Assembly (NCBI GenBank): GCA_963730185.1
Contig: CAVSQW010000012.1
Coordinates: forward strand, 256,001-320,000
Length of the DNA stretch: 64,000 nucleotides
Origin: an uncultured Gemmatimonadales bacterium
GTDB lineage: Bacteria; Gemmatimonadota; Gemmatimonadetes; Gemmatimonadales; GWC2-71-9
Reading direction: 5' to 3'
In this document: piece after piece, positions 11,663 through 62,830 of the stretch
Layout of the letters: each line of letters starts with the position of its first letter
How positions within the stretch are numbered: position 1 is the stretch's first letter
Translations under genes and position numbers: made by a program
Notes under the pieces: generated by a model
Told to the model about the DNA's origin: nothing
The model's input: only the letters and a program-made list of their open reading frames with translations
Database searches by the model: none

Positions 11663-11722
11663 GTTCTCTCCAACCCGATCCGGCCCGCCGGGCCGCCCCG
11701 GGATCCTCAACGGCTCCGACCA

Positions 11723-41675: not shown

Positions 41676-41853
41676 GAGCAAGCCGGAACGGTCGCTTCAG
41701 CCAAGCCCTTCGAGGGGCGATCGCGGGACCTGCGTCGCCCGCCCGAGAGCGGGCCCCTCGTCGGCGTAGGATCCTGGGGCTCCGGCTTCGGCCGGTTTCG
41801 CGCGGGCGCCCGCCGAGTTGCGACGTCGCCCGGGCGCGCCCCATCTTCCCCTC

Positions 41854-43029
41854 ATGGCCCACCCACCCAAGCTGGTCCCGGTCCCCCCGACCACGGGGGG
41901 CGAGGTCACGGTCGACCGCTCGCCCTTCTGGATCGGCTCGGCCTCGAGTGCGGCGCTCCGAGTGTTCCTGCCCTCCGTGGCGGAGCGACACGCCTCGATT
42001 CAAGAGCGGGAGGACGGTTACTACCTCTCGGCCCATCCCGGCGCCACCCCACCCAGGGTGAACGGGAGGCCGATCGCGGGTCCGGTGCGCCTGGAGGACG
42101 CGGCGGTCGTCGAGCTGGGCCCCACCGCCAAGTGGGAGTTCGTGACCGGCGCGCCGAGAATCCAGCCGGAGCCCGAGCCGGAGCCCGAGCCCGTCTACGA
42201 CGGATCGCCCGCACCCCGCGGCTGGGCCCGGAAGCGGCGGACCCGGTCGAGGCAGGTCGGCTTTCCCCTGTGGGCCATCGCGGTCGTGATCCTGATCGTC
42301 GGCGCCGTGGGCTACGGCGGCTACATGCTCTACCAGATGTTCAACTCGGTCCAAGGCGAGACCCGCGGGCCGCCGCCGCTCACCGAAGTCGAGGGCCGGC
42401 TCTACGACAGCCTGATGGTCGAAGCCACCAAGGACATCGAGCGAGGGTCCACGCTCCTCGACCTGGGCCTCCAGGACGCGGCGCTGACCCAGTTCACCAG
42501 CGCGATCGCCCTGTTCGAAACCAGCATTCTGGCCCGGAACGAGTGGGTCCGTCCCAGCATCGAGGCGCTGGTCGAGACGGTCCGGCGGATCTATCAGACC
42601 GACCGGGTCAACGTCCCGAACGCCCTGCCCGAGGCCCGCGGCAAGATCGCCGATCTGAGCCGAACCATGAGTGCGGCGCTGAGCCCCGATCAATTCAAGA
42701 CCGCGGTGGAGGTGGTCCAGCAGGCGTTCGACTCCAAGTTCGGGACGAAGTTCGTGGTGACCGGCGCCGACCATCCGGAGCACCTGTCGCTCTACGGGAA
42801 GGGCGGCGCGCTCGACATCCGGGTCAAAGACCTGACCCCGCCGGAAATCGACTTTCTGATCGAGAACTTCAAGGGAATCGGGATCCGGGTGAAGGACTTC
42901 TCCCGCGACGCCGTCCTCCAGGCGCAGATCCAGGCCGCTAAGGCACGCGGCTGGAGCGACCGGGCAGGAACCGGGCTCCATCTCCACATCGATCGGTTCC
43001 GGGATCGCCGGGACCGATGGACGGTGTGA
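41854..43029 (+). CDS. FHA-like domain / TM / putative Hedgehog-M15-like Zn peptidase membrane protein
   Basis: N-terminal degenerate FHA (IGS...AERHA...VNG...LEDAAVVELG); (PE)n linker; one TM helix; C-terminal EH..YGKGGALDI ... LHLHID. Confidence 0.6.
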   Translation: MAHPPKLVPVPPTTGGEVTVDRSPFWIGSASSAALRVFLPSVAERHASIQEREDGYYLSAHPGATPPRVNGRPIAGPVRLEDAAVVELGPTAKWEFVTGAPRIQPEPEPEPEPVYDGSPAPRGWARKRRTRSRQVGFPLWAIAVVILIVGAVGYGGYMLYQMFNSVQGETRGPPPLTEVEGRLYDSLMVEATKDIERGSTLLDLGLQDAALTQFTSAIALFETSILARNEWVRPSIEALVETVRRIYQTDRVNVPNALPEARGKIADLSRTMSAALSPDQFKTAVEVVQQAFDSKFGTKFVVTGADHPEHLSLYGKGGALDIRVKDLTPPEIDFLIENFKGIGIRVKDFSRDAVLQAQIQAAKARGWSDRAGTGLHLHIDRFRDRRDRWTV

Positions 43030-46102: not shown

Positions 46103-46933
46103 TCAGAAGGTCGCGATCAGGGTGGCGGCGGTCTCGGGCCGTCGGGCCGGGTCGGCGTCCAGAGCCCGGGTTACGAAATCCTCCAACGCCCGGGAGCCGG
46201 TCCAACGACGGGCCGCGAGCGGCACGGCCGGCTCCCCGGCGACGATCCGGGCCCGGTAGGCCGCGTCGGACTCGCCGGGGCCGAGGTCGTGAGGCAGGTG
46301 CCCCGTAAGGAGCTCGTACAGCGTGGCGCCGAGACCGTACAGGTCCACCGCCGGGGAAGCATCGATCGGGGCCGCCAGCAGCTCCGGCGCGGCGTAGCCC
46401 AACGTTCCCACCGCTTCCTCGACCCAGCCCAACGGCAGGCCCCGCGGGGGGTGCCCGGTCGCGGCCACCCCCAGGTCCGCCAGCCGGACCGATCCGTCGT
46501 CCATCACCAGGACGTTACTCGGCTTGACGTCCCGGTGAAGCACGCCATGCTCGTGGAGCCAGGACAGAGCCTCACTCAGCTGTTTCGCGATGGCGGTCAC
46601 CGCGGGCTCGGGGAGCGGCACCGCCGCCGCGTCGCGCCCCCGGGGGTGGAGCCGATCGCGGAGACTGCCGCCGCCGGCCCATTCCAGGACCGTGAGCGGC
46701 GGTTCGTCGACGGCGTCGAAGCAGCGAATCAGGGAATGCGACCCGCCCAGCCGGGTCAGGAGCTCGCGCTCCAGCCTGAAGCGGAAGACGGCTTCGGGGG
46801 CGTCGTCGCGGGGGTGGAACCGCTTGAGCGCTACGCGCCCGCCGTTCGGCGCGAGGGCGTCCCAGACTTCGGTCGTGCCGCGTCCGGAATCGAGCCGGCG
46901 GCGGAGCGTGTAGCCGGCGGTCGAGCCGGACAC
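46103..46933 (-). CDS. Hanks-type Ser/Thr protein kinase (catalytic domain only)
   Basis: VALK, HRDVKPSN, DLG, GTLGYAAPE and DLYGLG motifs; last gene of the T6SS-like operon. Confidence 0.92.
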   Translation of the reverse strand: MSGSTAGYTLRRRLDSGRGTTEVWDALAPNGGRVALKRFHPRDDAPEAVFRFRLERELLTRLGGSHSLIRCFDAVDEPPLTVLEWAGGGSLRDRLHPRGRDAAAVPLPEPAVTAIAKQLSEALSWLHEHGVLHRDVKPSNVLVMDDGSVRLADLGVAATGHPPRGLPLGWVEEAVGTLGYAAPELLAAPIDASPAVDLYGLGATLYELLTGHLPHDLGPGESDAAYRARIVAGEPAVPLAARRWTGSRALEDFVTRALDADPARRPETAATLIATF

Positions 46934-46943
46934 CAGGATCCGT

Positions 46944-48098
46944 TCAGGTGTGGAGGAACTTGAGCCGGGACACCTCGGCGACGGTGATCTCGTCGCCGTC
47001 GTCGAGCCGGTAGTGCTCGCCCCGCTTGACCGGCTTGCCGTTCAGCGCGGTGCCGTTCATGCTTGCGTCGACCAGGTAGTAGTCCCCTTCCTTGCGGAGC
47101 AGGGTGCAGTGGAAGCGCGACACGAGCGCGCCCGAGTCGCTCACCACCAGGTCGTTCTTCTCGTCCTCACCCGGCCCCTGCGCCGCGCCGATCTTGAAGA
47201 CGCCCTTCTCGCGGTCGATCGTCACCAGCTTGCCCCGGCCGATGCCGTCGACGATCTGGAGCACGGCGGCCCGCTTGGCGGCCAGCTCGTCGGCCTTGCG
47301 CTGGCGCTCCTCGCGGTACTTGGCGCCCCAGCGCACCACGAGCACCAGCCCCGCCGCCAGGATGATCAGCACCGGCACGATGTAGAGCGCCTGGCGCTTG
47401 AGGTCGTCCATCCGCTTCGAGCGCTGGAGCTCGGACATGAGGCTCTTGGCCTCGGGATGGTTGGGATCCTGCTGAAGGACGGCGCCGAGGTGCTGCTCGG
47501 CGCTGGCCCAGTTCTTCGCGTTGATGTCGGCCCGGGCGGCACCGAGATGCGAGCGCACCACCTCGGTGGACTGCTGATCCGCCTTGCCGGCCTCGAGCGC
47601 CCTCGATCGGGCGGTCTGGAGGTCGTTCTGGGCCTGCTGGAGCCGCTGCTGGGCGACCTGGTTCTGGGGGTCGCGGAACACCACCTGGAGCCAGCGTTGG
47701 ATCCGCTCGTTGATGTGGGCGGTGGTGGTGTCGTCGGCGACGTCGGCGGCGATGGCCTGCTGGATGGCCTGGTCGAGCGCGGCTTTCTCCTCCGGCGAGA
47801 GCGTCCCGGCCGCGGCAGCGCTGGGCATAATCTGGGCCGGTGGCGCCTGCAGCTTGAGCGCCGGGGCGGCCGAGTCGGCCTGCTTGGCGCCCGAGTCGGC
47901 CTTGGGGCCGGCGGTCGGGGCCTGGACCGCGGGCGAGGCGCCGGGCGCCGGCGCCTCGGCCGGCGGCTTCTGAGCGGCCGCCGGCTCCTTCTTCTTCTTC
48001 TTGAAGAACGGCAGCGGGATCTGGGCGCTGGCCTCGGGGGCCAGGGCCAGCGCGAGCACCAGGCCCAGGAGCGTTGCCCGTTTGGTCGTGGTGGTCAT
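46944..48098 (-). CDS. Membrane-spanning protein: signal peptide, Ala/Pro linker, TPR-like periplasmic region, TM, cytoplasmic FHA
   Basis: MTTTTKRATLLGLVLALALAPEASAQ; VLQQDPNHPEAK TPR-like; TM ALYIVPVLIILAAGLVLVV; FHA VSRFH...SMNGT...LDDGDEI; ATGA overlap with the Clp gene. Confidence 0.8.
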   Translation of the reverse strand: MTTTTKRATLLGLVLALALAPEASAQIPLPFFKKKKKEPAAAQKPPAEAPAPGASPAVQAPTAGPKADSGAKQADSAAPALKLQAPPAQIMPSAAAAGTLSPEEKAALDQAIQQAIAADVADDTTTAHINERIQRWLQVVFRDPQNQVAQQRLQQAQNDLQTARSRALEAGKADQQSTEVVRSHLGAARADINAKNWASAEQHLGAVLQQDPNHPEAKSLMSELQRSKRMDDLKRQALYIVPVLIILAAGLVLVVRWGAKYREERQRKADELAAKRAAVLQIVDGIGRGKLVTIDREKGVFKIGAAQGPGEDEKNDLVVSDSGALVSRFHCTLLRKEGDYYLVDASMNGTALNGKPVKRGEHYRLDDGDEITVAEVSRLKFLHT

Positions 48099-50848
48099 GA
48101 GACCCCCTCCGGCTGACCTCCCTCGGCGGCGCCGGCAGCCGCGCCGGTGGCGGCGTCGGCAGCCGCGCCGGTGGCGGCGTCGGCAGCCGCGCCGGTGGCA
48201 GCGTCGGCGGCTGCCGCCGCTTCCGCCGCCGCCGCTTCACGCTCGGCTTTGAGGCGCGCGGCCTCGTCCTCGACTTCCTTCGGCTCGCCGGCCAGGAGCG
48301 CGATCTCCTCGCCGTCCGGCACCACGCGGACCGCCATGCCGGGCCCCACGTCGCCCGCGATGATGAGTCGCGAGAGCGGGCTCAGGATGTGGCGATCGAT
48401 GGTCCGCTCCACCGGCCGGGCACCATAGACCGGATCGTAGGCCAGCCGGGCCAGGAGCGCCACGGCCTCGTCGTCGGCGTCGAGGGTCGCCTTGTGCTGA
48501 TCGAACAGCTGCCCGGCCAGGCTCTTGAGGTGCATCCGGACGATGACCTCCAGGGTGTCCTGCCCGAGCTCGTTGAACGGGATGACGCCGGACAGCCGGT
48601 TGAAGAGCTCGGGGCGGAGCGAGTCCTGCACCACCTTGAGGATGATCTCCTTCCGCTGCTCCGCGTCCTGGGCGACCGCGTTGGCTTCCTTCACGCCGAG
48701 GTTCGAGGTCAGCAGCACGATGGTGTTGGTGAAGTCGCAGAACCGGCCCTTGGCGTCGGTCAGTCGGCCTTCGTCCAGCACGCCGAGCAGGATGTCGATC
48801 ACCTCGGGATGGCCCTTTTCGATCTCGTCGAAGAGCACCACCGAGTAGGGCGAGCGGCGGACCTGTTCGGTCAGGAAACCGCCCTGCTCCGAGCCCACCA
48901 ACCCTGGCCGGGAGCCGATCAGGCCCGACACCGACCCGGAGTCCTTGTACTCCGCCATGTCGATCCGGATCAGGGCGCTCTCGTCGTCGAACAGCGCTTC
49001 GGCCAGGCCTTTGGCCAGCTCCGTCTTACCGACGCCGGTCGGGCCCACGAACAGAAACGAGGCGGGCTTCCGCTTCTTCCGGAGGTCGGTCCGCATCCGG
49101 CGGGCCGCTTCGGCCAGCGCGTCGACGGCGTCCTGCTGGCCGATCACCCGATCGGCGAGGCGTTCCTCGAGCTTGAGAAGCCGCTCGCGTTCGCTCTCCA
49201 TCATCCGCGAGATGGGGATCCCCGCCCGTCGCGCCACCACGTCGGCGATGTCGGTGGGACGCACCTCCTGGGGCACGAGGGGTCCGGCCTCGTTGACCTT
49301 GGCCTGGCGCTTCTCGAGGTCGGCCTCCTGCTCCTTGAGGAACTTGAGCGCGCCGTAGCGGATCTCGGCCGCGGCCGCCACGTCGCCGGAGGCCTCGGCC
49401 TGGGCCAGCTCGGCGTCTTTCTCCTGGATGGCTTTCCGGGTCTCCGCGAGGCCGGTGGTGACCGCCCGCTCTTCGTTCCACCGTTCCAGGATGCCGGCCA
49501 GCTCCGACTCGGCCGCCTTGACCTCTGTGGCCACGGCCTTGGGGTCGCCCTCGCCGCCGCCCTTGATCGCCTCGAGCCTGGCTTTGAGCCGGACCAGGGC
49601 CCGTTCCTTCTCGTCGATCAGGTTGGGCTTGGACTCGAGCTGCATCCGGAGCCGGGCGGCGGCCTCGTCGAGGATGTCGAACGCCTTGTCCGGGAAGAAG
49701 CGGTCGCGGAGGTGGCGGCGGGCCAACTTGACGGTGGCCTGGAGCGCGTCCTCGGTGATCCGAACCCCGTGGTGGGTCTCGTACTTGCTCTTGACGCCCC
49801 GGAGCATGGCCAGGGTCATCTCATCGTCGGGCTCCTCGACCACGATCCGCTCGAAGCGGCGGGCCAGGGCGCCGTCCTTCTCGATCGACTCGCGATACTC
49901 GTCGAAGGTCGAGGCCCCGACGCACTTGATCTCGCCCCGGGAGAGGGCCGGCTTGAGGATGTTGGCGGCGTCCATCCCGCCGGCGTTGCCGCCGGCGCCG
50001 ACCAGCGTGTGGATCTCGTCGAGGAAGAGGATCACGTCGGGCTGATCCTTCACCTCGTCGGCCACCGCCTTGATCCGCTCCTCGAATTCGCCCCGGTACT
50101 TGGCGCCGGCCACGAGGCCGGTCAGGTCCAGGGCGAGGAGGCGCGCGGCCCGGAGCGACTCCGGCACGTCGCCGGCCACGATCCGGAGCGCCAGGGCCTC
50201 GACCACCGCGGTCTTGCCGGTGCCGGGGTCGCCCACCAGCACCGGGTTACTCTTGGTCCGCCGAAGCAGGGTCTGTACGACTGAGCGGATCTCGATGTCA
50301 CGCCCGATCACCGGCATCAGCTTGCCGTCACGCGCCGCCTGGGTCAGGTCGCGGGTGAATCGCTCGAGGGTGCTGCCGCCTTCGCCGGGCTGCTCCTCGG
50401 TGGGCTGCATCACCTCGGGCGAGTCGAGCGCGGCGCCGAGGCGGTCGGCGGCCCAACCGCTGTCGCGGAGCGCGGGACCGAGGTCTCCCTGATCCGACCC
50501 GAGCGCGGCGAGGGCGACTTCGATGGGGCCGATGGTGTGGCCGCCGCGCTGGTCGGCCTGGGCGGTGGCCCGGTCGAGCAGGTCGCGGAGAGTCCGGCCG
50601 GCCACCGGCTGGCGGCCCGGCTCGAGCTTGACCGAGTCGGGCCCATCGGGCAGCGACTCGACCCGCCGAGCGGTGGCCGCCGCGTCGACCCCGAGCTTCC
50701 CGGCCAGCCGGCCGAGACCGCCCTTGGGATCGAGGAGGGCCAGCAGCAGGTGCTTGGCCTGGATGAAGGCGGCGCCCTGGCGGGCGGCGAGCCGCCGCGA
50801 TTCCTCCAGGGCCGCCGTCAGATCCATCGAAAGTCGGTTCAAATCCAT
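48095..50848 (-). CDS. tssH: Hsp100/Clp AAA+ ATPase in the T6SS operon (TssH position, ClpB-like architecture)
   Basis: Clp N-domain; GDPGTGKT / LFLDEIH; GPTGVGKT / LFDEIEK; coiled-coil middle domain; located between tssK and the FHA gene. Confidence 0.85.
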   Translation of the reverse strand: MDLNRLSMDLTAALEESRRLAARQGAAFIQAKHLLLALLDPKGGLGRLAGKLGVDAAATARRVESLPDGPDSVKLEPGRQPVAGRTLRDLLDRATAQADQRGGHTIGPIEVALAALGSDQGDLGPALRDSGWAADRLGAALDSPEVMQPTEEQPGEGGSTLERFTRDLTQAARDGKLMPVIGRDIEIRSVVQTLLRRTKSNPVLVGDPGTGKTAVVEALALRIVAGDVPESLRAARLLALDLTGLVAGAKYRGEFEERIKAVADEVKDQPDVILFLDEIHTLVGAGGNAGGMDAANILKPALSRGEIKCVGASTFDEYRESIEKDGALARRFERIVVEEPDDEMTLAMLRGVKSKYETHHGVRITEDALQATVKLARRHLRDRFFPDKAFDILDEAAARLRMQLESKPNLIDEKERALVRLKARLEAIKGGGEGDPKAVATEVKAAESELAGILERWNEERAVTTGLAETRKAIQEKDAELAQAEASGDVAAAAEIRYGALKFLKEQEADLEKRQAKVNEAGPLVPQEVRPTDIADVVARRAGIPISRMMESERERLLKLEERLADRVIGQQDAVDALAEAARRMRTDLRKKRKPASFLFVGPTGVGKTELAKGLAEALFDDESALIRIDMAEYKDSGSVSGLIGSRPGLVGSEQGGFLTEQVRRSPYSVVLFDEIEKGHPEVIDILLGVLDEGRLTDAKGRFCDFTNTIVLLTSNLGVKEANAVAQDAEQRKEIILKVVQDSLRPELFNRLSGVIPFNELGQDTLEVIVRMHLKSLAGQLFDQHKATLDADDEAVALLARLAYDPVYGARPVERTIDRHILSPLSRLIIAGDVGPGMAVRVVPDGEEIALLAGEPKEVEDEAARLKAEREAAAAEAAAAADAATGAAADAATGAAADAATGAAAGAAEGGQPEGVS
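48133..48204. repeat. 3 x 24-bp in-frame tandem repeat (DAATGAAA) in the Clp ATPase tail
   Basis: CGGCAGCCGCGCCGGTGGC(G/A)GCGT at 48133, 48157 and 48181. Confidence 0.9.
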
Positions 50849-50862
50849 GGAGTGGTCCCTGC

Positions 50863-52497
50863 TCAGGGTTGCCCGCCGCGGCCGGGACGACGGAGCGTGA
50901 TCTTGGGCGTCGTGGGCTGCGGGGTCTGGGGCGGCGGTGGCGGCGGCGCGGGTGCGGGCCGAGGCGGGGCGGCACCGGCGGCCGACGGCGCCATGCCCGC
51001 CATGCCGAGCCGGCGGCGGAACAGCACCGCGCCGCGGAGGCTGTGGCCCGGCTGCACCGTCACCGTCAGTCCGTTGATCGTCGCGACGTCTTCGGGAGTA
51101 TCGAAGTTCATCGCGAAGTTCCGTTGACTCTCGAGCTCGCAGATGACGGTCCGGGTAATCGGCGAGCGGTGACCGCCGGCCGCGTTGACCCGGACGGTCA
51201 CGCTCAGCTCCTGCCCCGGCGCCCACTGGTAGCTCGACCGCGGGTCGCCGGTCAGCACGATCCGATACTCGTGCTTCCCGGCGAGGTCGAGCTGGCTGAA
51301 GACGAAGGTCAGGAGGTCGCCCTCGCGCTGCGGATGCGACGGCGAGGTGACCGCTTCGTAGAAGTGCTCGCCGTCGCGATCGAGCAGGAACTTGATCGAT
51401 TCGATGGCCCGGTTGATCCGGTAGTCGACGTACTTGCCGGCCAGCGCGTCGACCAGGTGGCGGAGCCGGGAGAGCGTCTCCGTCGCGCGGACCACCAGCG
51501 GGCGGAGCTCTTCCCGCCGATCGAGCTCCCGCTGGGTGGCCAGCACCCCGCGCTCGGCCTCGAGCAGCTCGGAATAGCTGGTGTCGACCTGGCTCAGGTC
51601 CTTGAAGAACTGGCGGCTCGACGACGAGAGCTCGAGGGCCAACGCCACCGTCCGCCCGGCCCGTTCGAGCTGTTGGAAGAACCGGTGCGGCGGCATCGCC
51701 AGGTCGGCCGTCTCGTAAGCGCACTGCTCGAGCGCCATGACCGCCCGCTCCACGAAGGCGCCGATGTCGACGTCGCTCCGAACGTCGACGCCCCGGGCCG
51801 CCACCTTCTCGGCGTAGCGGGCGGCGCTCCGGTGGATCTCCTGGTACTCGCCGACCAGGAGCCGGGCCTCCGATTGGAGCCGGGTGGCGGCGGTGTAGAG
51901 GGCGGTATGGGCCAGGAGCGAGGCGCAGGGCGGGATGTACTGCCCGTCGAGCTCGAAGCCGAGCGTCTCCGAGGCCCGGCGAAGCTTCCCCACCACCATC
52001 GACGACGACGCCAGCTCGGCCGGGAGGCCGAGGCGGACTTCGTACTTGGCCCGGCTGAGGGCGGCCTGGTTGGGATTCGAGGGATCGAGTCCCACCGAGG
52101 CCGGATCGTTCTCGCGCTCGCCGCTCCGGACCACGTACACCAGGGCATCGGTCACCCCGGCCAGGTCGCTCTTTCGCCAGTCGCCCTGCACCACCCGCGA
52201 CTCGTCGATCTCCACCAGCTCGCCGCCGGGGGTCACCCCGCGGGCCCGGAGGACCGAGACCCGGATCCGATCGGCCTCGTTCAGGACCTCGACCTTGGGG
52301 TCGTACTTGGCCAGGCCCTGCTCCACCGTCTCGAGCCGGACCCCACCGCCGACCAAGCCGGTGCCCGGGAGACAGTACTTGAGCAGCCAGGCAACCTGCT
52401 CTTCGACGTATCGGTCCTGACGCATGAAATGCTGCGGCGCGAGCAGCATTCCGGTGGTCCAGTTCACCGACTTGAAATAGTCGTCCCGTTGGGTCAC
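50863..52497 (-). CDS. tssK: T6SS baseplate TssK-like protein with C-terminal extension
   Basis: N-terminal SVNWTTGMLLAPQHFMRQDRY and YIPPC, typical of TssK; Pro-rich tail; GTG coupled to the tssG stop. Confidence 0.75.
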   Translation of the reverse strand: MTQRDDYFKSVNWTTGMLLAPQHFMRQDRYVEEQVAWLLKYCLPGTGLVGGGVRLETVEQGLAKYDPKVEVLNEADRIRVSVLRARGVTPGGELVEIDESRVVQGDWRKSDLAGVTDALVYVVRSGERENDPASVGLDPSNPNQAALSRAKYEVRLGLPAELASSSMVVGKLRRASETLGFELDGQYIPPCASLLAHTALYTAATRLQSEARLLVGEYQEIHRSAARYAEKVAARGVDVRSDVDIGAFVERAVMALEQCAYETADLAMPPHRFFQQLERAGRTVALALELSSSSRQFFKDLSQVDTSYSELLEAERGVLATQRELDRREELRPLVVRATETLSRLRHLVDALAGKYVDYRINRAIESIKFLLDRDGEHFYEAVTSPSHPQREGDLLTFVFSQLDLAGKHEYRIVLTGDPRSSYQWAPGQELSVTVRVNAAGGHRSPITRTVICELESQRNFAMNFDTPEDVATINGLTVTVQPGHSLRGAVLFRRRLGMAGMAPSAAGAAPPRPAPAPPPPPPQTPQPTTPKITLRRPGRGGQP

Positions 52498-53402
52498 GCA
52501 GCACTCCTTGGCTCGGGACTGCCGAGATAGCTGTTCAGGCCCAGGGCGGCCTCATGCTCCGGATCGCCGAGCACGGCCGCCTCCGAGCGATTGCCGACGA
52601 TCCACCGCTCCGTCACGGTGGCGCGGAGATGCACCGGCAGCACCAGGCGGTAGATCGCGTCGCGCTGGCTCCGCTCGTCGGGCCGCTGCATCCGCCGGTA
52701 GGTCTCGAGGTCGACCGGGCCGATGTCGATCTCCACCGAGGTGCTGGCGGTGACGCCGTCGCCCACGATCGCGTCGATGCCCAGCCGGCCGTTCCGCCGG
52801 CCCAGCCGGGTCCGCCGCCCGGCCGAGACCGGGGCGATCCCGGAGACCAGCCGGACCGGGGATGCCGGCAGCCGGAATACCGAACGTAAGGCAATCGCCG
52901 GGCCGTCGGGACGGCCCGCGATCCGGGCCAGGGACGGCAGGAGCCGGGCCACGTCGTACCACCGCTCCCGGGGCCAGGGCGCGGCCGACAGTCGGAATAT
53001 CTCGGTGATCCAGCGGTTGGCGCCATCGGGGTCGTCGGGGTGGAGGTCGAGCAGCCCCCCCGCGGCCCGCAAATGGAGCTGGAGCTTGAGAAAATGGGTG
53101 TCGAAGAGGCCGAACAGCCGGTCGCTCCGGAATTCGCCCTCGGCGCTGTCGCGCATCGGGTAGGGCAGACTGTCGATCGCGCCCGAGCCGGCCACGGTCA
53201 GCACCACTCGGGTCTCCAGGGCGAGCTCGGTGCCGGCCGCCGGCGACTGCGACACCACCGTGCCCGGAGCCCAGCCCGGCCCCGCACTGTGCAAGGTGAT
53301 CCGATCGAGATCGACGCCCATCCGGAGCAGCGCCGGCACGGCGGAATCCACGGTGTGGCGGGCGCCGCGCCGGGGGGTGACCAGGTCGGGCATCGCGCTC
53401 AC
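52494..53402 (-). CDS. tssG: T6SS baseplate TssG-like protein with N-terminal PASTA-like domain
   Basis: Position after tssF; LFGLFDTHF, TRLGRRNGRLG...IVG and VEIDIGPVD..Y TssG-like motifs; ALGLNSYLG. Confidence 0.7.
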   Translation of the reverse strand: MSAMPDLVTPRRGARHTVDSAVPALLRMGVDLDRITLHSAGPGWAPGTVVSQSPAAGTELALETRVVLTVAGSGAIDSLPYPMRDSAEGEFRSDRLFGLFDTHFLKLQLHLRAAGGLLDLHPDDPDGANRWITEIFRLSAAPWPRERWYDVARLLPSLARIAGRPDGPAIALRSVFRLPASPVRLVSGIAPVSAGRRTRLGRRNGRLGIDAIVGDGVTASTSVEIDIGPVDLETYRRMQRPDERSQRDAIYRLVLPVHLRATVTERWIVGNRSEAAVLGDPEHEAALGLNSYLGSPEPRSAA

Positions 53403-55138
53403 CGGCCGTCGCCCTCCACCGGTACGATGGTGACCTCGATCCGATGCCCGATCATGGCTCGTTCGCTCAGGTACTGCTCCAGCTCGGTGCCCAGCCGCTC
53501 CAACTCGGCCTCGGGGTCGGCGAACTTGTCCCGGGGCGCGTGGGCGGTCACCCGGGTCACCAGCCCGAGGCCGGCGTCGGTAATCTCCGAGAGCGACTCC
53601 ACGTCGATCCGGGCCCGGTCGAGATTCGGCTCGAAGGCCCGGACCGCGATGTCGATGTCGGCCGCCGTGACCAGGCGGTCGCGGGTCCGGAGCATCTCGG
53701 CGAACCGGTCGCGGGCATCGGAGTAGCTGGGCGGCGCCGCGCCGCCCTTGGACGGCGTCAGGCTCGTGACCCGGGCGGTGGGATTGTTGGGCAGGTCGGT
53801 CCGGATCTGCTTCACCTCGCCGGGCGCGATCCCGTTGCCCTCGTCGCCGTCGCAGTAGAGCACCCGGAGCATGGCGTACGTCTCGAACCGCCCGCTCTCC
53901 TGCTTGGCCGGCGCGAATTCGAACTGGCCCCGGCCCCGGTAGCGATATCGTCCGGTGGCGGCCCGGGCCTCGAGGTCGCCGGTGGCGACGTAGGGATCGC
54001 CGTTCTCGCCCACCACCGAGAGCACCCCCATGACGTGGCGACGGTCCGAGCCCATCGGTCGGTGGGTTACCACCGATCCCATCCGATCGAAGTCGATCTG
54101 CTCGCTCCAGACCTCGATGTTGGAGACGGTGACGCAGTTGACCGCGATCCGGGTGACGGTATTGGCCACCCCGCGGAGTCCGGCCGGCAGGGGGATCTGC
54201 ACCCAGGCGAGCGGCCGATCCAGGGCCCGTTCCTGCCCCTGCGGGAGCAGCTTGGGCACCGCGCCGGCGACGGCCGGCGGGATCCGCGACCTGGTCCGTC
54301 GGTCACGGGGGATTTCAGGAAACACCCAGAGCCGCGAGCCGTAGACGCCGCCGACCAGCTGAATGGCCCGGGCCAGGGCGGACTCCGGCTCGGCGGCGCC
54401 GGGCGGCTCGCGGAAGAACTTGAGCCGCCACATGCCGCCCCGGGTCCGGGTGGAGCGGAGGATCCCGGGCTCGGTGACCACGCCGGCCTCGGAGAGGATT
54501 TGCCACGGGCTTCGCGCCAGGGCCGTCGCGACCTCGGCGCCGCGACCCGACACCTCGATGAAGACGCCGAGCCGGCTCAGGTGCGACTCGTCGGTCTCGA
54601 AGGCCAGGAGCAGCATCGGCGCCGGGTTGGTGAGATCCAGCGCCACGGAGTTGCCCGGGAGGACCGGCTGGTTGACCCACGGGAGGCGGGCGCCCGGGAT
54701 CGTCTGAAGCCGGCCACTCTCGTACACCCCCGCGAACACCAGCTCGGTGGGCGCAATCTCGATGGTTTCGTCGGGCGCGAAGACGATCTGCTCGCCGTTG
54801 GGCCGGTAGCCGATCAGCTCGATGTCGGGGGTGACCGGCTCGCGCTTCTGGACCTGGCTGAACTGGACCACCGCCTGCGCCGGACGGGCCAGCCGAGCCG
54901 GCAGACCCAGCCCGCGGATCAAGTCATCGAGCGCGGCGGCGAAGAAGACGTGGTCGGCCTCCCGGTAGATCGTGTCGATCTGATGAGCCAGGGCGTGGAA
55001 CACCGAGCCCAGGACCGGGTCGGGCAGGGTCTGCCCGCCGGTCTGCTGGTACATCTCCCGGGTAAACGCCTCGCGCAGCTGCCGCGCGATGTCGGCGGCG
55101 CTCCGTCCGGCGGGTCTCAGGCTCTGGCCCTGCTCCAC
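53399..55138 (-). CDS. tssF: T6SS baseplate TssF-like (gp6/baseplate J-related) protein
   Basis: DPVL..VFHALA...ARPAQAVV N-terminus; KGGAAP...RFAEMLRTRDRLVTAADI C-terminus. Confidence 0.75.
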   Translation of the reverse strand: MEQGQSLRPAGRSAADIARQLREAFTREMYQQTGGQTLPDPVLGSVFHALAHQIDTIYREADHVFFAAALDDLIRGLGLPARLARPAQAVVQFSQVQKREPVTPDIELIGYRPNGEQIVFAPDETIEIAPTELVFAGVYESGRLQTIPGARLPWVNQPVLPGNSVALDLTNPAPMLLLAFETDESHLSRLGVFIEVSGRGAEVATALARSPWQILSEAGVVTEPGILRSTRTRGGMWRLKFFREPPGAAEPESALARAIQLVGGVYGSRLWVFPEIPRDRRTRSRIPPAVAGAVPKLLPQGQERALDRPLAWVQIPLPAGLRGVANTVTRIAVNCVTVSNIEVWSEQIDFDRMGSVVTHRPMGSDRRHVMGVLSVVGENGDPYVATGDLEARAATGRYRYRGRGQFEFAPAKQESGRFETYAMLRVLYCDGDEGNGIAPGEVKQIRTDLPNNPTARVTSLTPSKGGAAPPSYSDARDRFAEMLRTRDRLVTAADIDIAVRAFEPNLDRARIDVESLSEITDAGLGLVTRVTAHAPRDKFADPEAELERLGTELEQYLSERAMIGHRIEVTIVPVEGDGR

Positions 55139-55141
55139 GGA

Positions 55142-56992
55142 TCAGCCCTGCCTCGGGGTATCGGGATCCGCGGTTCGGGTGGCCACGGCGTCTTCCGGCG
55201 TCGTCCGCGTACCCAGGTCGGTCGAGTCGACCTTGACCTGATTGGTCGGCACCGGCTTGCCGGCGAACCCGGGCGGCTGCACGTGCACCATCCCGCCCAC
55301 GATCGCGTTCAGGGCGCCGGCCACCGACTCGACGTTCATGTTCCCCTTCAGCGCCACGTTCATGCCGTTGAGCGTCGCGTCGCGACCGGCCTTGAGGGTC
55401 AGGGCGCCGGTGACCTCGAGGTAGTCGTCGCCGCTCACCTTCTTGAGCGACGGGCCCGACACGACCTGGGTGAAGCTCTTCGACTTCATCCTGAGCTCGC
55501 CCTCGGCCTCGAGGGCGATGTCGCCCCCGGACTTGATCGTGATCACCGGGGTGTCGCCGTTGGTCAGCTGCACCATGCACTTGCCTTCGGGCGTGAAGAC
55601 CTCGATGGTCTCCGCCCCGTCGTCGTCGAGCAGCTGGATGGTGTTGCCGCTCCGGGTAATGATCCGCTTGGCGGTATTCCCCGAGGTCGGCTCCGGCGCC
55701 TGGTCGAGACCGTTCCAGAGCCCCCCCACCACCACCGGGAACTCGGGATCGCCGGCCAGGAAGACCACCAGCACCTCATCGCCGATTTCGGGGATGAACA
55801 TCATGCCCCGTCCGTTCCCGGTGTGCGGAGTGGCCAGCCGAGCCCAGTAGGACTGCTCGTCGCCGCCGCTCCACCGATACTGCACCCGGACCCGACCCAT
55901 CTTCGACGGGTCCTCGTTGTCGATCACCTCGGCCGCGATCGGCCCCGCGATGGCGACCCGGGCCGGGGCCTGATAGCTGGTGAACGTCTTCCAGGGCGTG
56001 GCCTCGAACCGGTTGAGGTACTGCTGGTCCTTGAAGGTGTTCGTGATCCGGGTGATCCCCAGCTTGCCGGTGGTGGCCAGCTGGAAGTCCTTCCCCTCGA
56101 TCAGGTTCACCAGATCGCCCGCCTGGAGGCCGGGCTTGCCGGACACGCACTCGACCCGGAGCGCTCCGCCCATCGCCCGCTCGCTCTCCTGTCGGAGCTT
56201 GGCCTTGAACTCAGCGTGGTCGGTGGACACCGCGAACGGCTCCGCCAGGATCGGGTCGCCGCCCCCGGCATACCCTCGGGCCAGGTCATTGACCGTGGCG
56301 ACCAGCTTGGCCGCCCCACCCAGGGTTGCCGGGTTGGACCGGATGCCGGCGTGGGCGTGGGTCGACTTCTCCTTCAGGTCGTAGCTCGCGCCCGTCACGC
56401 CGTTGTTCACGGGCCGGGCCCGGGCTGTGACCTCGATGAGCGACTCACCCCAGATCAGATCCCAGCCCTTGTCGACGAACTCGTTCCGGATCTCGACCTG
56501 GGGACCCGATGTCACCAGAAAGCAGCCGGCCTCGTCGGCCAGGCGCTTCAAGAACTCGAACTCGGTCTCGCCCCACTGGACGAAGTCGAAGGGATCGGCG
56601 GCCGGGAGTTTGGCCACGACCTTGACGCCCAGCTTGGTGGCGACGTCGCCCAGCTTGGCGCGGGGGAAATGCCGGGTGTCCCGGAACTCGTGCCGGATCG
56701 AGGGCGAGACGCAGTCGAGCACGAACCGGGCGCCGAAATGGAGCAAGTGGCTCTGGGCCCCGTCGGCGACGACGCCCTGAAAGATCTCGAGCGGATCGGC
56801 CTCGTCCTCCTGCACGGTCACGCTGACCGGGGCCCGGAGCAGGTCCTCGAGGGCCACGGTTTGGGCCCGGTCGCGGGTGAACTCGATGGCGCAGCGGGTG
56901 TGCTCTCCGAGCTCCTGCACCACCTCGAGCGATTCCACTTCGCTGTTTCTGAGCACCAGGTCGCCGATGCTGACCCGGATGATGACTTTCAT
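55142..56992 (-). CDS. vgrG: VgrG/TssI spike protein
   Basis: VQWGETEFEFLKRLA (gp27-like); DNEDPSKMGRVRVQY, WARL..PHTGNGRGMMFIPEIGDEVLVVF (gp5 OB); C-terminal beta-helix repeats. Confidence 0.92.
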   Translation of the reverse strand: MKVIIRVSIGDLVLRNSEVESLEVVQELGEHTRCAIEFTRDRAQTVALEDLLRAPVSVTVQEDEADPLEIFQGVVADGAQSHLLHFGARFVLDCVSPSIRHEFRDTRHFPRAKLGDVATKLGVKVVAKLPAADPFDFVQWGETEFEFLKRLADEAGCFLVTSGPQVEIRNEFVDKGWDLIWGESLIEVTARARPVNNGVTGASYDLKEKSTHAHAGIRSNPATLGGAAKLVATVNDLARGYAGGGDPILAEPFAVSTDHAEFKAKLRQESERAMGGALRVECVSGKPGLQAGDLVNLIEGKDFQLATTGKLGITRITNTFKDQQYLNRFEATPWKTFTSYQAPARVAIAGPIAAEVIDNEDPSKMGRVRVQYRWSGGDEQSYWARLATPHTGNGRGMMFIPEIGDEVLVVFLAGDPEFPVVVGGLWNGLDQAPEPTSGNTAKRIITRSGNTIQLLDDDGAETIEVFTPEGKCMVQLTNGDTPVITIKSGGDIALEAEGELRMKSKSFTQVVSGPSLKKVSGDDYLEVTGALTLKAGRDATLNGMNVALKGNMNVESVAGALNAIVGGMVHVQPPGFAGKPVPTNQVKVDSTDLGTRTTPEDAVATRTADPDTPRQG

Positions 56993-57017: not shown

Positions 57018-57377
57018 CTAGCCCGCGGCCATTTCCCCGAACAGGGCCTTGCCTTCGGGTGACTCTATCGTCAACCGGAAGGCGCGCCGGCCGTCGACGC
57101 CGAAGGTCCCGGTGGTGATCGACTGGACCCGATACCCTGCCACGCCCAGGTTGCCGAGGGCCGCGTTGATGGCGTCCTGCAACCCTTCGTGATCGGTCCG
57201 ATCGCGACGGGCCGCTTCGGTGAAGGCCTCGAGCAGCCCGAACCAGGGCGCGTGGGGCCAGGCCCGACTCGACGTGCCGGCCATCACCTGAACGAGACCC
57301 AGTATCGCGTCGAAGCCCTCCTGCTCGACGAAACGTCCCTGAGGGGTGATCCGGAGCGGAAGGGCTATCGATCGCAT
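57018..57377 (-). CDS. tssE: gp25-like baseplate protein TssE
   Basis: IALPL...AILGLVQVMAGTSSRAWPHAPWFGL resembles the gp25 T..GE...P.FG motif; position between the tube gene and vgrG. Confidence 0.65.
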   Translation of the reverse strand: MRSIALPLRITPQGRFVEQEGFDAILGLVQVMAGTSSRAWPHAPWFGLLEAFTEAARRDRTDHEGLQDAINAALGNLGVAGYRVQSITTGTFGVDGRRAFRLTIESPEGKALFGEMAAG

Positions 57378-57431: not shown

Positions 57432-57872
57432 TTACTTCGTGAACTTGTGCTTCGAGACGTTCGACTCGTCGACCGCCACCACCAGCTCGAGCTTGAGCAG
57501 GTTCTTGAAGCCGATCTGTGAGGTCGAAACGGTCTCGGTCGCGATCACCGGGTTCCCCACCTCGAAGTGGGAGATCCAGCCCATGAACTCGACCGCGTGC
57601 AGCACCTTGTCGGCTTCGTCCATATAGTAGGTGATCTCGCACTTGTGGAGCGGATCCTTGCTCTCGGTCGCGATCTTCCACAGCTCGATCTGCTGCGACG
57701 GCGAGAGGTTGTCGATCACGCTCGCGTCCATCCAGATGTCCACCCGACCGACCATCGAGTCGCCGATCCGGCGACCGACCTGGTTGGCGTTCCGGGCGAT
57801 CCGGTAGGTGGCCTGAACGGGTCGGAACTCGATGCTATCGATCTTGACCTTGACGCGGTTGTACGTGGCCAT
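57432..57872 (-). CDS. tssD: Tail-tube protein TssD (Hcp-equivalent, Bacteroidota T6SSiii-like)
   Basis: 146 aa beta-rich; Y.I.R..NQVGR......G.V.I and ITYY.DEADKVL..VEF pattern recalls TssD of subtype iii; RBS GGAGAG. Confidence 0.7.
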   Translation of the reverse strand: MATYNRVKVKIDSIEFRPVQATYRIARNANQVGRRIGDSMVGRVDIWMDASVIDNLSPSQQIELWKIATESKDPLHKCEITYYMDEADKVLHAVEFMGWISHFEVGNPVIATETVSTSQIGFKNLLKLELVVAVDESNVSKHKFTK

Positions 57873-57912: not shown

Positions 57913-58299
57913 TCAGAGGCCGAACAACTTCTTCATCCTCCCTAAGAGCGACGCGGGGGCGTCACTTTCCCTCATGCCGGGGTCGGGGACGGATGGGGCG
58001 GCTGCCTCGGCCGCCGGCGAGGCCGGAGCCTCGACGGACGGACTCGCGGCCTCAGCCCTGGGCGCGGGCCGGAATTCGAATTCGGGATCGCGCTCGGTGC
58101 GCGCCTGGTGGCGCGACGAGAAGTTGAGCACCGACATCCGGGTCTTGTCGCCCCGGGCCAAGTGGCCCGAGCCGTCCATCCGACGCTCGACCCGGATGTT
58201 GCCGCGCTCTTGCTTGGTGTACCGGAGGTCGGGCTTCCGGGTTCCGTCGGGGTTCGCCAACGGGTCGGGCGCCTCGGCCTCCTGGTCGTCAGCCGACAT
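57913..58299 (-). CDS. Hypothetical protein between sheath and tube genes, with C-terminal amphipathic helix
   Basis: RBS GAGGT before the ATG; Ala/Pro-rich linker; ends SLLGRMKKLFGL. Confidence 0.7.
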   Translation of the reverse strand: MSADDQEAEAPDPLANPDGTRKPDLRYTKQERGNIRVERRMDGSGHLARGDKTRMSVLNFSSRHQARTERDPEFEFRPAPRAEAASPSVEAPASPAAEAAAPSVPDPGMRESDAPASLLGRMKKLFGL

Positions 58300-58317: not shown

Positions 58318-59664
58318 TCAGCCTTCGGCGCCCTTCTTGAAGTCCGGGGTATCGATCTTGAGCTCGAAGGTTTCCGCCGGTCCGACGGGCAGCACCTCGA
58401 GATTGATGTCGAGTACCCCCTGGGCGAACTTGTCCTCGTCCATGTCGATGTCGAGCGAATACTTGTAGATCGTCCCGCCCTTGAGCTCGTCTTCCAGGAA
58501 CTCCTCGATCGGGTTCCGGACCTGCTCCTTCACCAGATCGCGGGTCAGCCGCTGCTCCGCCACCCGGCGGAGGTAGACGGAGATTCGCCGCTCCAGGTAG
58601 CGAAGGACCCGGTACGACGTAAAGAACTTGAGCACCCCCTTGGGGTCCTCGGCCTGGGTCCGGCTCCCGACGAAACAGAGCTGGTTCGAGTCGTCGCGGA
58701 TCATGCAGAGCACCTGCCGCTCCATGGTCAGGTGCTCCATCTGGGAGATCCGGGGCTCGATCCGGGACTTCTCCACCCCGCGGATCTGCCCGAAGATCAT
58801 CCCGACCGGGCCTTGAGCGATCCCGCCGCCGGTGGTCCGGTCGGTCCGGGCCAGACAGCCGGCGAAGAGCAGCGAGGCCGGCGAATAGAGATCGGGGTCG
58901 TCGACGTCGCCGTCGGCCTTCTCGAACCAGTGGCGGTCGCGGAGCTTCACGGTCCCGGCGATCACCACGTCGGCGGCCGCCTTGTCCTCGGGGCGCTTCA
59001 GGAACTCGTAGGCGCCGCCGTCGGTCCGGAACTGGTCGGAGAGCTGCTTGAAGTTCTTCTCGTCCTTGAGGTCGCCGATCAGCAGCATGCCCCACTGGCT
59101 GGCAATGTCCTCGAGCCGCTTCCGGACGTTGTCGGGTACATAACCCGGCAAAACCAGGTTGCAGATGAACTGCCGGAAGTTGAAGGTGTCGTTCCGGCTC
59201 TGAATGAACTCGTCCAGCGCCTCGATGGTGGAGCTGTTGACGTCGCTGGTGATGACCTTGGTATCGGCGTTGAAGATGTAGAACTCCACCGGCGGCCGTT
59301 GCTGCGAGTCGCGGACCTCGGCGTTCTCGAAGAAGAGCTGGAGCTGCCGGTAGCTCCGCTCGATCGGCCGGATCTTCTCGTAGATCTGGGCCAGCACGTC
59401 ATCGCGGAGCGCCTCCATCGAGGCGATCTGCTCGTCGAGCTTCTTCAAGGCCTGTTCGTAGCTGTCCTTGGTGGAGAGCAGGCTGGAGAAGTCGGCGACC
59501 CGCTTGAGGAACTGGCCGGCGCTCTCGGCGGTGAAGATGTCCTTGAGCGCGGTCTTGGCCGGCGCGGGGTGAATGACGTTGAAGATCTCCTCGATCGCCT
59601 TCCCGGCCGCGCGCTTGCCGATGATGTCCTGCGCGCTCTTGACCATCACTTTCTCGTCGCTCAC
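58318..59664 (-). CDS. tssC: Contractile sheath large subunit TssC (DUF5458/T6SSiii-like)
   Basis: 448 aa; RPIERSYRQLQLFFEN, IFNA, LVLPGY, MLLIGD and VLPVGPAETF..KI motifs; GTGA overlap with tssB. Confidence 0.8.
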   Translation of the reverse strand: MSDEKVMVKSAQDIIGKRAAGKAIEEIFNVIHPAPAKTALKDIFTAESAGQFLKRVADFSSLLSTKDSYEQALKKLDEQIASMEALRDDVLAQIYEKIRPIERSYRQLQLFFENAEVRDSQQRPPVEFYIFNADTKVITSDVNSSTIEALDEFIQSRNDTFNFRQFICNLVLPGYVPDNVRKRLEDIASQWGMLLIGDLKDEKNFKQLSDQFRTDGGAYEFLKRPEDKAAADVVIAGTVKLRDRHWFEKADGDVDDPDLYSPASLLFAGCLARTDRTTGGGIAQGPVGMIFGQIRGVEKSRIEPRISQMEHLTMERQVLCMIRDDSNQLCFVGSRTQAEDPKGVLKFFTSYRVLRYLERRISVYLRRVAEQRLTRDLVKEQVRNPIEEFLEDELKGGTIYKYSLDIDMDEDKFAQGVLDINLEVLPVGPAETFELKIDTPDFKKGAEG

Positions 59665-60131
59665 GCCTCACCTCCCGACAGCCGCTTGAGCGCGTCCTGG
59701 AACTCGCCCAGAGCCTCGATGATCTCTTTCCGCTGATCGTCGTTCTCCCAAGCCCGCCGCACCGCGAGCACCGAGAACCGCTCCCGCATCCGGTGCAGGA
59801 GATCGATCTGGCTCTGGAGATCGGCCAGGTCGTTCCGCTTGCCCGGGGTCCGGGAGCCGATCTTCTTGGGATCGAAGTCCTTGAGGCTGTTGAACTCGAG
59901 ATCGGCGACGAACTCGGTGCCCTCTTCCCCGACGGTCGTCTTGAAGTCGAGGGCGGGCTTGAACTTGTCGAAGGCCTCCTGGAGGTCGGAGACCTTGGTC
60001 GGGCCCTCATCCTCGGGGCATTCCTCTCCCACCCGCTCGACGGTCATCGGCATGACGGTCGCCGTGGTTTCGGTGGGAACCTGACGGGGCGCCTGTTTGA
60101 CGCCGGCACGGGTGACTTTGACGACTGGCAT
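59661..60131 (-). CDS. tssB: Contractile sheath small subunit TssB (T6SSiii-like)
   Basis: 156 aa; EAFDKFKP, LEFNSLKDFDPK and ENDDQRKEIIEAL motifs; directly upstream of tssC. Confidence 0.8.
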   Translation of the reverse strand: MPVVKVTRAGVKQAPRQVPTETTATVMPMTVERVGEECPEDEGPTKVSDLQEAFDKFKPALDFKTTVGEEGTEFVADLEFNSLKDFDPKKIGSRTPGKRNDLADLQSQIDLLHRMRERFSVLAVRRAWENDDQRKEIIEALGEFQDALKRLSGGEA

Positions 60132-60377: not shown

Positions 60378-61694
60378 TCACCCCGCCCGCGCCTTGGCCG
60401 CCGTCACGTCCGCCGGCTTCCTGGGCGCCGCCTCCTTGAGGTCGGTCCGGAGCCCGCCGGCCAGCTTGGCCTTCTTCTTGGGCGCCGCGGCCGTCGCCGC
60501 GCCGGCCGGCAGGATCCGGGGCCAGAGCAGCCGGGGCAGCACCAGCCAGAGCAGGGCCAGCAGGATCAGCACGAATAGCGCCAACGGAATCCGGCGGTCG
60601 ATCACCTCCGACCCACCGAGCTGATTGGAAATCCCCGCCGGGATGACCCCCGGCGACACCACCCCCGAGAAAGCCGGCAACGCCATCACCGGTGGCCGCC
60701 AGACGGCCACCCCAGTGGCGGCTGCCGCGCCCCCGCCCAAGGCAAGGCTGGTCCCGATCGCCGTCCACCCTCGCCCAAGCTCCTCCCGCCCCCCGCTCGG
60801 CACGGGGAACGCCAGCTCCCAGGTCGACGAAAGCAGGTTCCGGATGTCGTCCAGCGGCCGGGCCAGCTCGAAGGCGTCGATCGGGACCACGTAGCTCCGA
60901 CCGCGGGGGCCCGCAAGCGCCTGGAGCGCTCGCGGGTCGACCCCACCGCCCAGCCCGATCACCGCCGTCACCAGACCCGAGTTGGCCACGGCCCGGGCCG
61001 CCGTCTGGAGCCCGGCCGCGCCGGTCAGGAGCCCGGAGTCGTCGCCCGGATGGTCCACATCGTTGTTGCCGTCGGTCAGCACCACCAGGACACCCAGGGC
61101 GTCCGCCCCGGCCTGCGCCAGCTCGGTCTTGAGCCGCTCGGTCCCCAGGTCGATCGCGCTGTAGAGGCCGGTGTTCTCCCGGTCGGGCGTGGGAAGGGCC
61201 TCCACCTGATCGATCGCCTGCGCCGGCGGGACGAACCGGGCGCTCCGGATCCGGCCGGCCACGTCCACGCTCCCGAACGGGGCGACCGCCACCTGGATGG
61301 CGCCGTCGGCCATCGATTCCAGGGAGCGAAGGAGGTTGTCCTTGAGGACGATCTTGGCGGTCCCGATCCCCAGGTTCCGCATGCTGCCGCTCACGTCCAC
61401 CAGCATCAGGATCCGCGCCGGCCGGCTCCGGACTCCCGGAAGCCGCCGGGCGAAGGCGACGATCCCGTCGTCACCCCGGAACCGGATCCGCCAGGCCGAG
61501 TCGACCGCGGCCGCTGGCGCGGTGGCAATCCGCCGGGCGGCGTCGACGGTGACGTCGATGGTGGTGGTGAGACAGGCCTGGTTGGTGTTGTCGGCACAGC
61601 GCACCAGCAGCGCGTCGGGCAGCTGAGCCTGGCCCGGCGCCGCCATCCCCGCCAGCAGGGCAACGAGCCCGAAGGCACTCCGGCGCTCGCTCAC
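60378..61694 (-). CDS. Membrane-anchored VWA (MIDAS) domain protein
   Basis: Signal peptide; LVDVSGSM, TGLYSAI and VLTDG form a complete MIDAS; C-terminal TM and Lys-rich tail; GTGA overlap with the upstream gene. Confidence 0.88.
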   Translation of the reverse strand: MSERRSAFGLVALLAGMAAPGQAQLPDALLVRCADNTNQACLTTTIDVTVDAARRIATAPAAAVDSAWRIRFRGDDGIVAFARRLPGVRSRPARILMLVDVSGSMRNLGIGTAKIVLKDNLLRSLESMADGAIQVAVAPFGSVDVAGRIRSARFVPPAQAIDQVEALPTPDRENTGLYSAIDLGTERLKTELAQAGADALGVLVVLTDGNNDVDHPGDDSGLLTGAAGLQTAARAVANSGLVTAVIGLGGGVDPRALQALAGPRGRSYVVPIDAFELARPLDDIRNLLSSTWELAFPVPSGGREELGRGWTAIGTSLALGGGAAAATGVAVWRPPVMALPAFSGVVSPGVIPAGISNQLGGSEVIDRRIPLALFVLILLALLWLVLPRLLWPRILPAGAATAAAPKKKAKLAGGLRTDLKEAAPRKPADVTAAKARAG

Positions 61695-62830
61695 AGGGAC
61701 GCCTCCGGGAACCGGCGGAACCGGAACTGGTGCTCGCCCAGGACCACCACGTCATCGTTCAGGAGATCGGTCGGTCCGGTGATCGGCTGGGCGGCGAGCA
61801 CGGCGCGCTCTCCCCCCTGACCCGTCGGAGCGATGGCCAGCCGGCCCCGCTGCGCTCGCACCTGGAACCGCCGTCCGAAGGCGTTGGCCACGTCGTCGAG
61901 CACCTCCCACTCCCGGTGGCGGATGAGCCCGACCGAGCCGCCGCTCACGGTCTCGAGCTCGACCACCCCCAACGCCCGGGCCGGCCGGCTCAGCCCGTAG
62001 CCCAACCCCGAGCCCACCAGCACGAAGGCGATCAGTTGCCAGAGGTCGGTCGGGCCCGGGAGCGACATGATCAGGCCGCCGAGCGCCCCGGCGCCCAGGC
62101 CGAACAGGAGCCCGTCGAGCAGCCGGCCTCGGTCACGACCGAACCAACGGGCCCCCAACACGAGGCCGCCCAGACCGCCCGACAGGCCCCACACCAGCAG
62201 CCGGGCCACGATGAACCCTTGACGGGAGCTGCCGAGACCCCCCAACCCGGCGACCAGCAGCCCGAGCAGGGCGCCCACCGTGGTCCCGACCACCCCGAGC
62301 ACCAGCCCGATCGCCACCGCCGCCACCGCCGCTTCGTTCCGCCGGAGCGCCGCGAAGCCGAGGATCGCCGCTCCAACGAAGGCGCCGAGAATCGCGGCCA
62401 CCGTCAGGTCGAGGGTGCCGTAGCTCACCAGCACGGTCCCCAAATCGGTGAAGAGCGACCCGACCAGCCAGGCGACGGCGCCGCCCGACAGCCCGGCCAC
62501 CAGACCGATGTACGCCCCCTTGGGTAGGAACGGTTTGGCCGGCGGCTCCGGCCGGGCCGTCTTCGGACCGGTCCGCCGCTGCATCCGGAGCTCGATCGAG
62601 TAGAGCGGGGCGATCCGGAGGGTCTCGGGCGGCTGCTGGAGATCGAGGGAGCGGCCGTTCCAGGCCACGAACAGCTCGTCCTCGGGCCCTCCCTTGAGCA
62701 TGATCCCCCGCTGGCGGAGCTCTTCCAGGACGTGGCGGAGCTGGGGGCCGAGCGGCCGGTCGTCGTCCAGCGTGAAGGGCACCCGCTCCAACCCGCGCTC
62801 GGTGACGAGATCGATGTTGTAGGTCGGCAT
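61691..62830 (-). CDS. Ubiquitin-like (YukD/EsaB-type) + multi-TM + degenerate FHA-like membrane protein
   Basis: N-terminal beta-grasp-like pattern (YNIDLV/VPFTL/helix/LFVAWNGRSLD/IELRM); about 6 Gly-rich TM helices; C-terminal LLNDDVVVLGEHQFRF. Confidence 0.6.
   Translation of the reverse strand: MPTYNIDLVTERGLERVPFTLDDDRPLGPQLRHVLEELRQRGIMLKGGPEDELFVAWNGRSLDLQQPPETLRIAPLYSIELRMQRRTGPKTARPEPPAKPFLPKGAYIGLVAGLSGGAVAWLVGSLFTDLGTVLVSYGTLDLTVAAILGAFVGAAILGFAALRRNEAAVAAVAIGLVLGVVGTTVGALLGLLVAGLGGLGSSRQGFIVARLLVWGLSGGLGGLVLGARWFGRDRGRLLDGLLFGLGAGALGGLIMSLPGPTDLWQLIAFVLVGSGLGYGLSRPARALGVVELETVSGGSVGLIRHREWEVLDDVANAFGRRFQVRAQRGRLAIAPTGQGGERAVLAAQPITGPTDLLNDDVVVLGEHQFRFRRFPEASL

Follow-up and report, generated by a model that had tools for sequence, protein, structure and literature searches.

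In the TssK6-TssF2-TssG wedge of EAEC (PDB 6N38, 6GIY; Park 2018, PMC6300606), TssG is reported as modelled only over residues 122-365; the N-terminal TssF2-TssG stem is described as touching TssC, and TssK, at the opposite end of the wedge, as docking to the membrane. The LG-repeat feet of EAEC TssG are reported to bind TssK (PMC8406304). T6SSiii, according to Abby 2016 found only in Bacteroidetes, is described there as anchored by TssNQOPR (Bongiovanni et al. 2024, PMC10781749). Few parts of the T6SS wedge are as poorly resolved as the N-terminal head of TssG, and a family with a confidently modelled head fold offers a testable handle on it; such a family includes the TssG of the window, by which is meant the whole stretch of 64,000 nucleotides analysed here.

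The T6SS operon of the window, with all its genes on the minus strand, runs in the order five-TM protein, vWA protein, tssB, tssC, 128-aa protein, hcp-like, tssE-like, vgrG, tssF, PASTA-tssG, tssK, clpV, FHA/TPR protein, kinase. Profile matches identify TssB (59661..60131), the VgrG spike (55142..56992), the ClpV/ClpB-type AAA+ ATPase (48095..50857) and TssK (50863..52497; PF05936 above cut-off, TIGR03353). TssC (58318..59664) is of the PF17541 (DUF5458, Bacteroidota T6SSiii) type, the mark of T6SSiii, with 77.8 bits. The TssF-like wedge subunit of 579 aa (53399..55138) is assigned from TIGR02243 (E 9e-11) and synteny, its Zixibacteria ortholog showing a weak Pfam TssF match; the tssF stop overlaps the GTG start of tssG. 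The TssE-like protein (119 aa; 57018..57377) and the Hcp/TssD-like tube protein (146 aa; 57432..57872) have no Pfam match of their own and are named from position, size and synteny; their counterparts in Zixibacteria, for the TssE-like protein a positional one, match gp25 and PF17642 TssD, respectively. The 128-aa protein between tssC and hcp (57913-58299), with a conserved N-terminal motif, a low-complexity tail and no Pfam match, recurs in 8/8 relatives.

In the window TssG (P0001), a PASTA-fold head (residues 1-69; 53187..53393) is joined by a G-x-G-x-x-x-x-LP linker (residues 70-77; 53163..53186) to a TssG/gp7-type helical stem, followed by an alpha/beta body with TssK-binding loops (52494..53162). 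Stem and body carry the Pfam TssG match (PF06996), have a gp7-like fold and match 6n38_G and phage/CIS wedge subunits structurally. A Foot-1-like LG repeat (LGRRNGRLGIDAIVG; 52761..52805) and a Foot-2-like one (LGDPEHEAALGLNSYLG; 52521..52571) are recognisable from sequence, conservation and the motif given in PMC8406304; the protein is thus a T6SS TssG and not a phage gp7, and tssF and tssK adjoin it. Full-length EAEC TssG aligns structurally from residue 1 of the window protein; the minimal phage/CIS wedge subunits 8v3w, 8kea, 7yfz and 9cuy align only from about residue 70, and most single-copy wedge subunits of this kind (T4 gp7, P2 gpI; those of phiCD508, diffocin, Pam3 and the S. coelicolor CIS) are without a PASTA head and likewise align from there.

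An earlier note on this DNA had seen the PASTA consensus in the N-terminal ~70 aa, which the PF03793 profile bears out with 26.6 bits against a curated cut-off of 23.2 (30 bits in a genome search). The predicted model of the head, one helix on a three-stranded sheet, has the PASTA fold as well and superimposes on solved PASTA structures, with an rmsd of 1.4-1.9 Å over 60-65 residues to domains of the StkP/PknB/PrkC/PBP2x class. The head keeps the signature G-x-V-V-x-Q-x-P-x-x-G; over three phyla, Q49-x-P51-x-x-G54, R31 and G38 are strongly retained, H13, D16, R31 and G38 forming a conserved surface, and the linker, which aligns with the canonical GLxGxxGxLP, has an invariant P77 in 79 family members. 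The head shares fold and signature with the PASTA domains (PF03793) of StkP, PknB, PrkC and PBP2x but differs from them in being single, cytoplasmic and N-terminal on a structural protein, with a small insertion after MPDL. The lack of a signal peptide, also claimed earlier, holds: the window TssG has no hydrophobic segment, and so does not share the extracytoplasmic placement of PASTA sensors, and the 79 family members have N-terminal extensions of 0-28 aa, with a hydrophobic N-terminus in 1/79. Judged from its sequence, the PASTA head of TssG is cytoplasmic, without export signal and present in a single copy.

PASTA-headed TssG occurs in records labelled Gemmatimonadota, Acidobacteriota, Zixibacteria and Krumholzibacteria, in conserved tssF-tssG-tssK operons with a T6SSiii-type sheath (neighbourhoods from Gemmatimonadota and Zixibacteria-type loci); this recurrence among homologs rules out an artefact or a one-off fusion. 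The closest homologs of the window TssG carry Gemmatimonadales or Gemmatimonadota labels, a second group Acidobacteriota/Bryobacteraceae labels, and a third comprises 70 genome loci titled Zixibacteria, Ignavibacteria, Krumholzibacteria, Latescibacterota or unclassified. Among 401 genomes of the window's phylum (a tally that, alone among those given here, includes the unpublished genome G157), nine others have full-length matches, and the tssB-tssK core is syntenic in 8/8 relatives examined. PASTA is found at E<=0.05 in 39 of the 50 representatives scanned (10 above the cut-off); one canonical TssG and one fragment are among the 11 without such a match. In a sample of 121 Zixibacteria-phylum genomes, centred on an Ignavibacteria-titled genome and with Zixibacteria-titled phylum mates, 62 contain PF17541 TssC and 64 have a match to the family profile, which takes in the head in 51 of them and starts only at about position 80 in the other 13; the lineage that keeps the PASTA head occurs in about 40% of the sampled genomes. 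Homologs of TssC, D, E, F, G, K and VgrG are present in 45/45 Zixibacteria-type loci with full flanks. Canonical T6SSi TssG (strong PF06996; loci L175-L204) is found in 39/401 genomes of the window's phylum, with 0/10 of the genomes with full-length PASTA-TssG among them. Searches of plasmids with the window TssG, of phages with the PASTA head and of viral contigs with Bacteroidota TssG gave no useful match, and a BFVD fold search returned body-type matches only, with no named PASTA-wedge protein.

Mean identity between Gemmatimonadota and Zixibacteria proteins is 33% over residues 1-70 and 21-22% over the rest of TssG, so that the head is the best-conserved region of TssG between phyla; compared as profiles, the heads of the Gemmatimonadota, Acidobacteriota and Zixibacteria groups agree with one another at P>99%. 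These values bear on the reading of the head as a dispensable passenger or spacer, its PASTA-like sequence kept by folding constraints alone. Such a reading would accommodate the fact that the residues conserved best in the head, A18, L22, G26, Q49, P51, G54 and L65, are those of the generic PASTA pattern, and that TssKFG is reported to have been purified with a TssG lacking residues 1-63 (Park et al., PMC6300606); it is very improbable, given that the parts of TssG that bind TssF and TssK are less conserved across phyla than the head.

Whether PASTA was added to TssG or takes the place of a part of it can be read from profile alignments, in which the family profile aligns over full length with 31 canonical TssGs (P 98.4%) and from residue 8 with Hymenobacter T6SSiii TssG (P 96.6%; Bacteroides TssG, 5%), and in which PASTA falls on the canonical or Hymenobacter N-terminal head, directly ahead of G...LP. 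In the canonical TssG model, helix-strand-strand-strand, the order of the PASTA head, precedes GxxGxLP. From these alignments, the PASTA domain is not an add-on; it stands where TssG otherwise has a head of its own. The PASTA-TssG fusion of the earlier note is real and family-wide, with TssG's head slot filled rather than a module added; the superposition on the normal N-terminal region that the note had considered extends to slot and order of elements, but not to head-only similarity (P<=4.2%). Compared by head alone, the family gives no significant match with canonical T6SSi TssG (P 0.7-4.2%) or with four TssGs from Bacteroidota (P 0.5-1.7%); the PASTA profile matches neither the canonical head nor any of the four Bacteroidota TssG heads (4/4 negative), and a fold search with the canonical model, a poor probe of the head as the whole model was used, has no PASTA in its top 50.

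A sister lineage in the Zixibacteria phylum, with ten TssGs of 305-306 aa from 14 regions, shows the same operon in four long regions. Its head, the best bridge between heads with and without PASTA, is as long as the Zixibacteria PASTA head and aligns with it in register over 29 gap-free columns (E 0.0022, above 30/30 column shuffles) but with P only 13%; the QxPxxG signature is absent from the sister heads, and 0/6 scanned match PASTA. In an ML tree of the TssG body (head removed, 55 rows picked from larger sets), the PASTA-headed Zixibacteria group falls with the non-PASTA sister and Bacteroidota proteins (88/92, unstarred); the AU test does not reject a topology that unites all PASTA-headed rows (p-AU 0.294), so that a single gain of the PASTA head is possible. 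A tentative and rather doubtful extension is that PASTA is the ancestral TssG head fold, recognisable in an undescribed multi-phylum T6SS lineage and eroded in Bacteroidota and Proteobacteria; if so, the head of every T6SS baseplate would be a PASTA-derived clamp, with a role like that of LysM proteins in phage baseplates. LysM proteins such as T4 gp53 act as clamps there.

With Bacteroidota T6SSiii, as described in PMC10781749, the window system has in common the PF17541-type TssC and a vWA membrane protein in the operon; TssD-type Hcp is shared by Zixibacteria members of the PASTA-TssG family. The TssG heads of Bacteroidota T6SSiii, in contrast, are without PASTA (4/4), and the hosts of PASTA-TssG lie outside Bacteroidota. 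With a Zixibacteria-type TssC as query, 10/11 plasmid matches are from Bacteroidota. Unlike EAEC-type T6SSi, which has TssA/J/L/M, the window system has no detectable ones: the profiles of TssA (PF06812), TssJ, TssL and TssM give 0 matches in the 82%-complete genome and matched the E. coli control. The TssN profile has no match in the genome (in a search without a positive control match), and the N-terminus of the five-TM protein shows no similarity to two TssN sequences (P 0.1%). PASTA-TssG marks a widespread T6SSiii-related lineage outside Bacteroidota, for which no description was found, with envelope anchors that differ by phylum and a PASTA head that is probably structural in function.

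In B. fragilis, a vWA domain is part of TssR, and a five-TM bundle with a ubiquitin-like domain part of TssN. In the window, the candidate inner-membrane anchor is a five-TM protein whose N-terminal domain is soluble and conserved (61691..62830) and the candidate envelope anchor a vWA-domain membrane protein (60378..61694); these two (together 60378-62830) and two single-TM FHA proteins (46944-48098, 41818-43029), the former with a TPR-like part and a C-terminal FHA domain, are conserved alongside the operon in relatives from the Gemmatimonadota phylum and are together candidates for an undescribed envelope anchor. In Zixibacteria-type loci, tssK is followed (L051:12457-16184) by a 311-aa C-terminal-TM protein (45/45 full-flank loci), a 730-aa TM protein that is GTPase-like and faintly matches IcmF-related_N (44/45) and a 179-aa exported-looking protein (43/45); on a T6SSiii-type tail, this trio may serve as a TssL/TssM-like anchor. 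ClpV is split into two adjacent genes (484 + 367 aa) in loci L051 (1143-3697) and L065, and the split match pattern is also seen in other Zixibacteria-type loci.

Our preferred reading, held with modest confidence, is that the PASTA head has a structural role, as a knob by which the sheath-side tip of the TssF2-TssG wedge would bind a putative protein partner, and is not a peptidoglycan sensor. By analogy with EAEC, six heads per baseplate would each sit at the end of a three-helix stem whose end contacts the first TssC ring; the head would bind TssE, TssF or TssC of its own or a neighbouring wedge and, like LysM clamps, would act as a clamp for the wedge or for sheath initiation. Its conservation across phyla, despite different anchors and accessory genes, suggests a partner among the core subunits. 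Docking of an accessory or regulatory factor (a TssA substitute, ClpV, or FHA/kinase proteins) in place of a static wedge clamp would fit the missing TssA, TssJ, TssL and TssM profile matches, and a kinase match and an FHA-TPR match each present in 7/8 Gemmatimonadota-phylum loci. It is unlikely, however, as Zixibacteria-type loci conserve the head equally well; there, 0/26 long loci match the window kinase, FHA, vWA or five-TM protein and the anchor set is another one, so that a partner would have to be a core component common to all.

The same loci bear on the operon kinase. The earlier note was right that it has no sensor domain, the 276-aa Ser/Thr kinase protein (46103..46933) being soluble, but PASTA as its missing sensor is rejected as the main reading, since 0/26 long Zixibacteria-type loci match the kinase and another kinase, of 705 aa and with both a TM segment and a C-terminal region, lies just past the window end. 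A grafted PASTA with a cell-wall precursor or muropeptide as its ligand, linking envelope status to baseplate assembly or firing, is improbable more generally. Its true PASTA fold with the family signature, the binding of lipid II/muropeptide reported for the PASTA domains of PknB (PMC6428115) and the single graft allowed by the p-AU value would suit it; the head, however, is cytoplasmic and single-copy, the ligand sites described in PMC6428115 being located at a conserved Arg of PrkC PASTA3 or in the linkers or hinges that separate PASTA repeats in tandem, it is kept where no homolog of the window kinase is nearby, and its signature is absent from sister systems with the same operon. Extrapolated from EAEC, the head would also point away from the membrane and from membrane-bound lipid II. 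As this architecture shows, a PASTA match is not in itself evidence of peptidoglycan sensing, and binding of proteins by PASTA has precedent in the terminal PASTA of StkP, reported to bind LytB (PMC6428115). A cytoplasmic single-copy head, accessory genes that differ between loci and this precedent together favour the clamp over docking, sensing or a passenger; of the repurposed module proposed in the earlier note, for protein interaction or precursor binding, it is the former part that is favoured, the latter being unlikely for a cytoplasmic, single-copy domain. Against the clamp stand the sister-head match of only P 13%, the non-significant head-only similarity to canonical and Bacteroidota heads, the retained Q49-x-P51-x-x-G54, R31 and G38, which are as compatible with a ligand site as with a protein interface, and a position relative to the membrane extrapolated from EAEC.

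PASTA-headed TssG is apparently a real, family-wide and undescribed variant, although the supplements of PMC10781749, PMC9113992 and PMC6730261 could list such loci. In the open-access full texts searched, no relevant paper combines PASTA with TssG, with the baseplate or with contractile injection, in keeping with the earlier statement that the fusion was not known, and none treats a T6SS in Zixibacteria. The co-occurrence itself is already present in automatic annotation, as the JGI name 'TssG/PASTA domain' and in ESM Atlas clusters. Two Atlas clusters of PASTA + Tail_P2_I, with 76 and 84 members, most commonly from Myxococcota (scores 0.77-0.80, below 0.9 and so leads only), suggest that the pairing of PASTA with a wedge protein recurs; stand-alone viral PASTA proteins are found there too, likewise as leads with scores <0.9.

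Genes just past the window end (L205:1903-6232, 11668-13146) code for a zinc-ribbon protein with kinase and TM parts, a repeat protein that by eye resembles Sel1, a further zinc-ribbon protein, with PEGA, and a DUF4123 match, which suggests that the cluster continues upstream beyond a PLP-decarboxylase gene.
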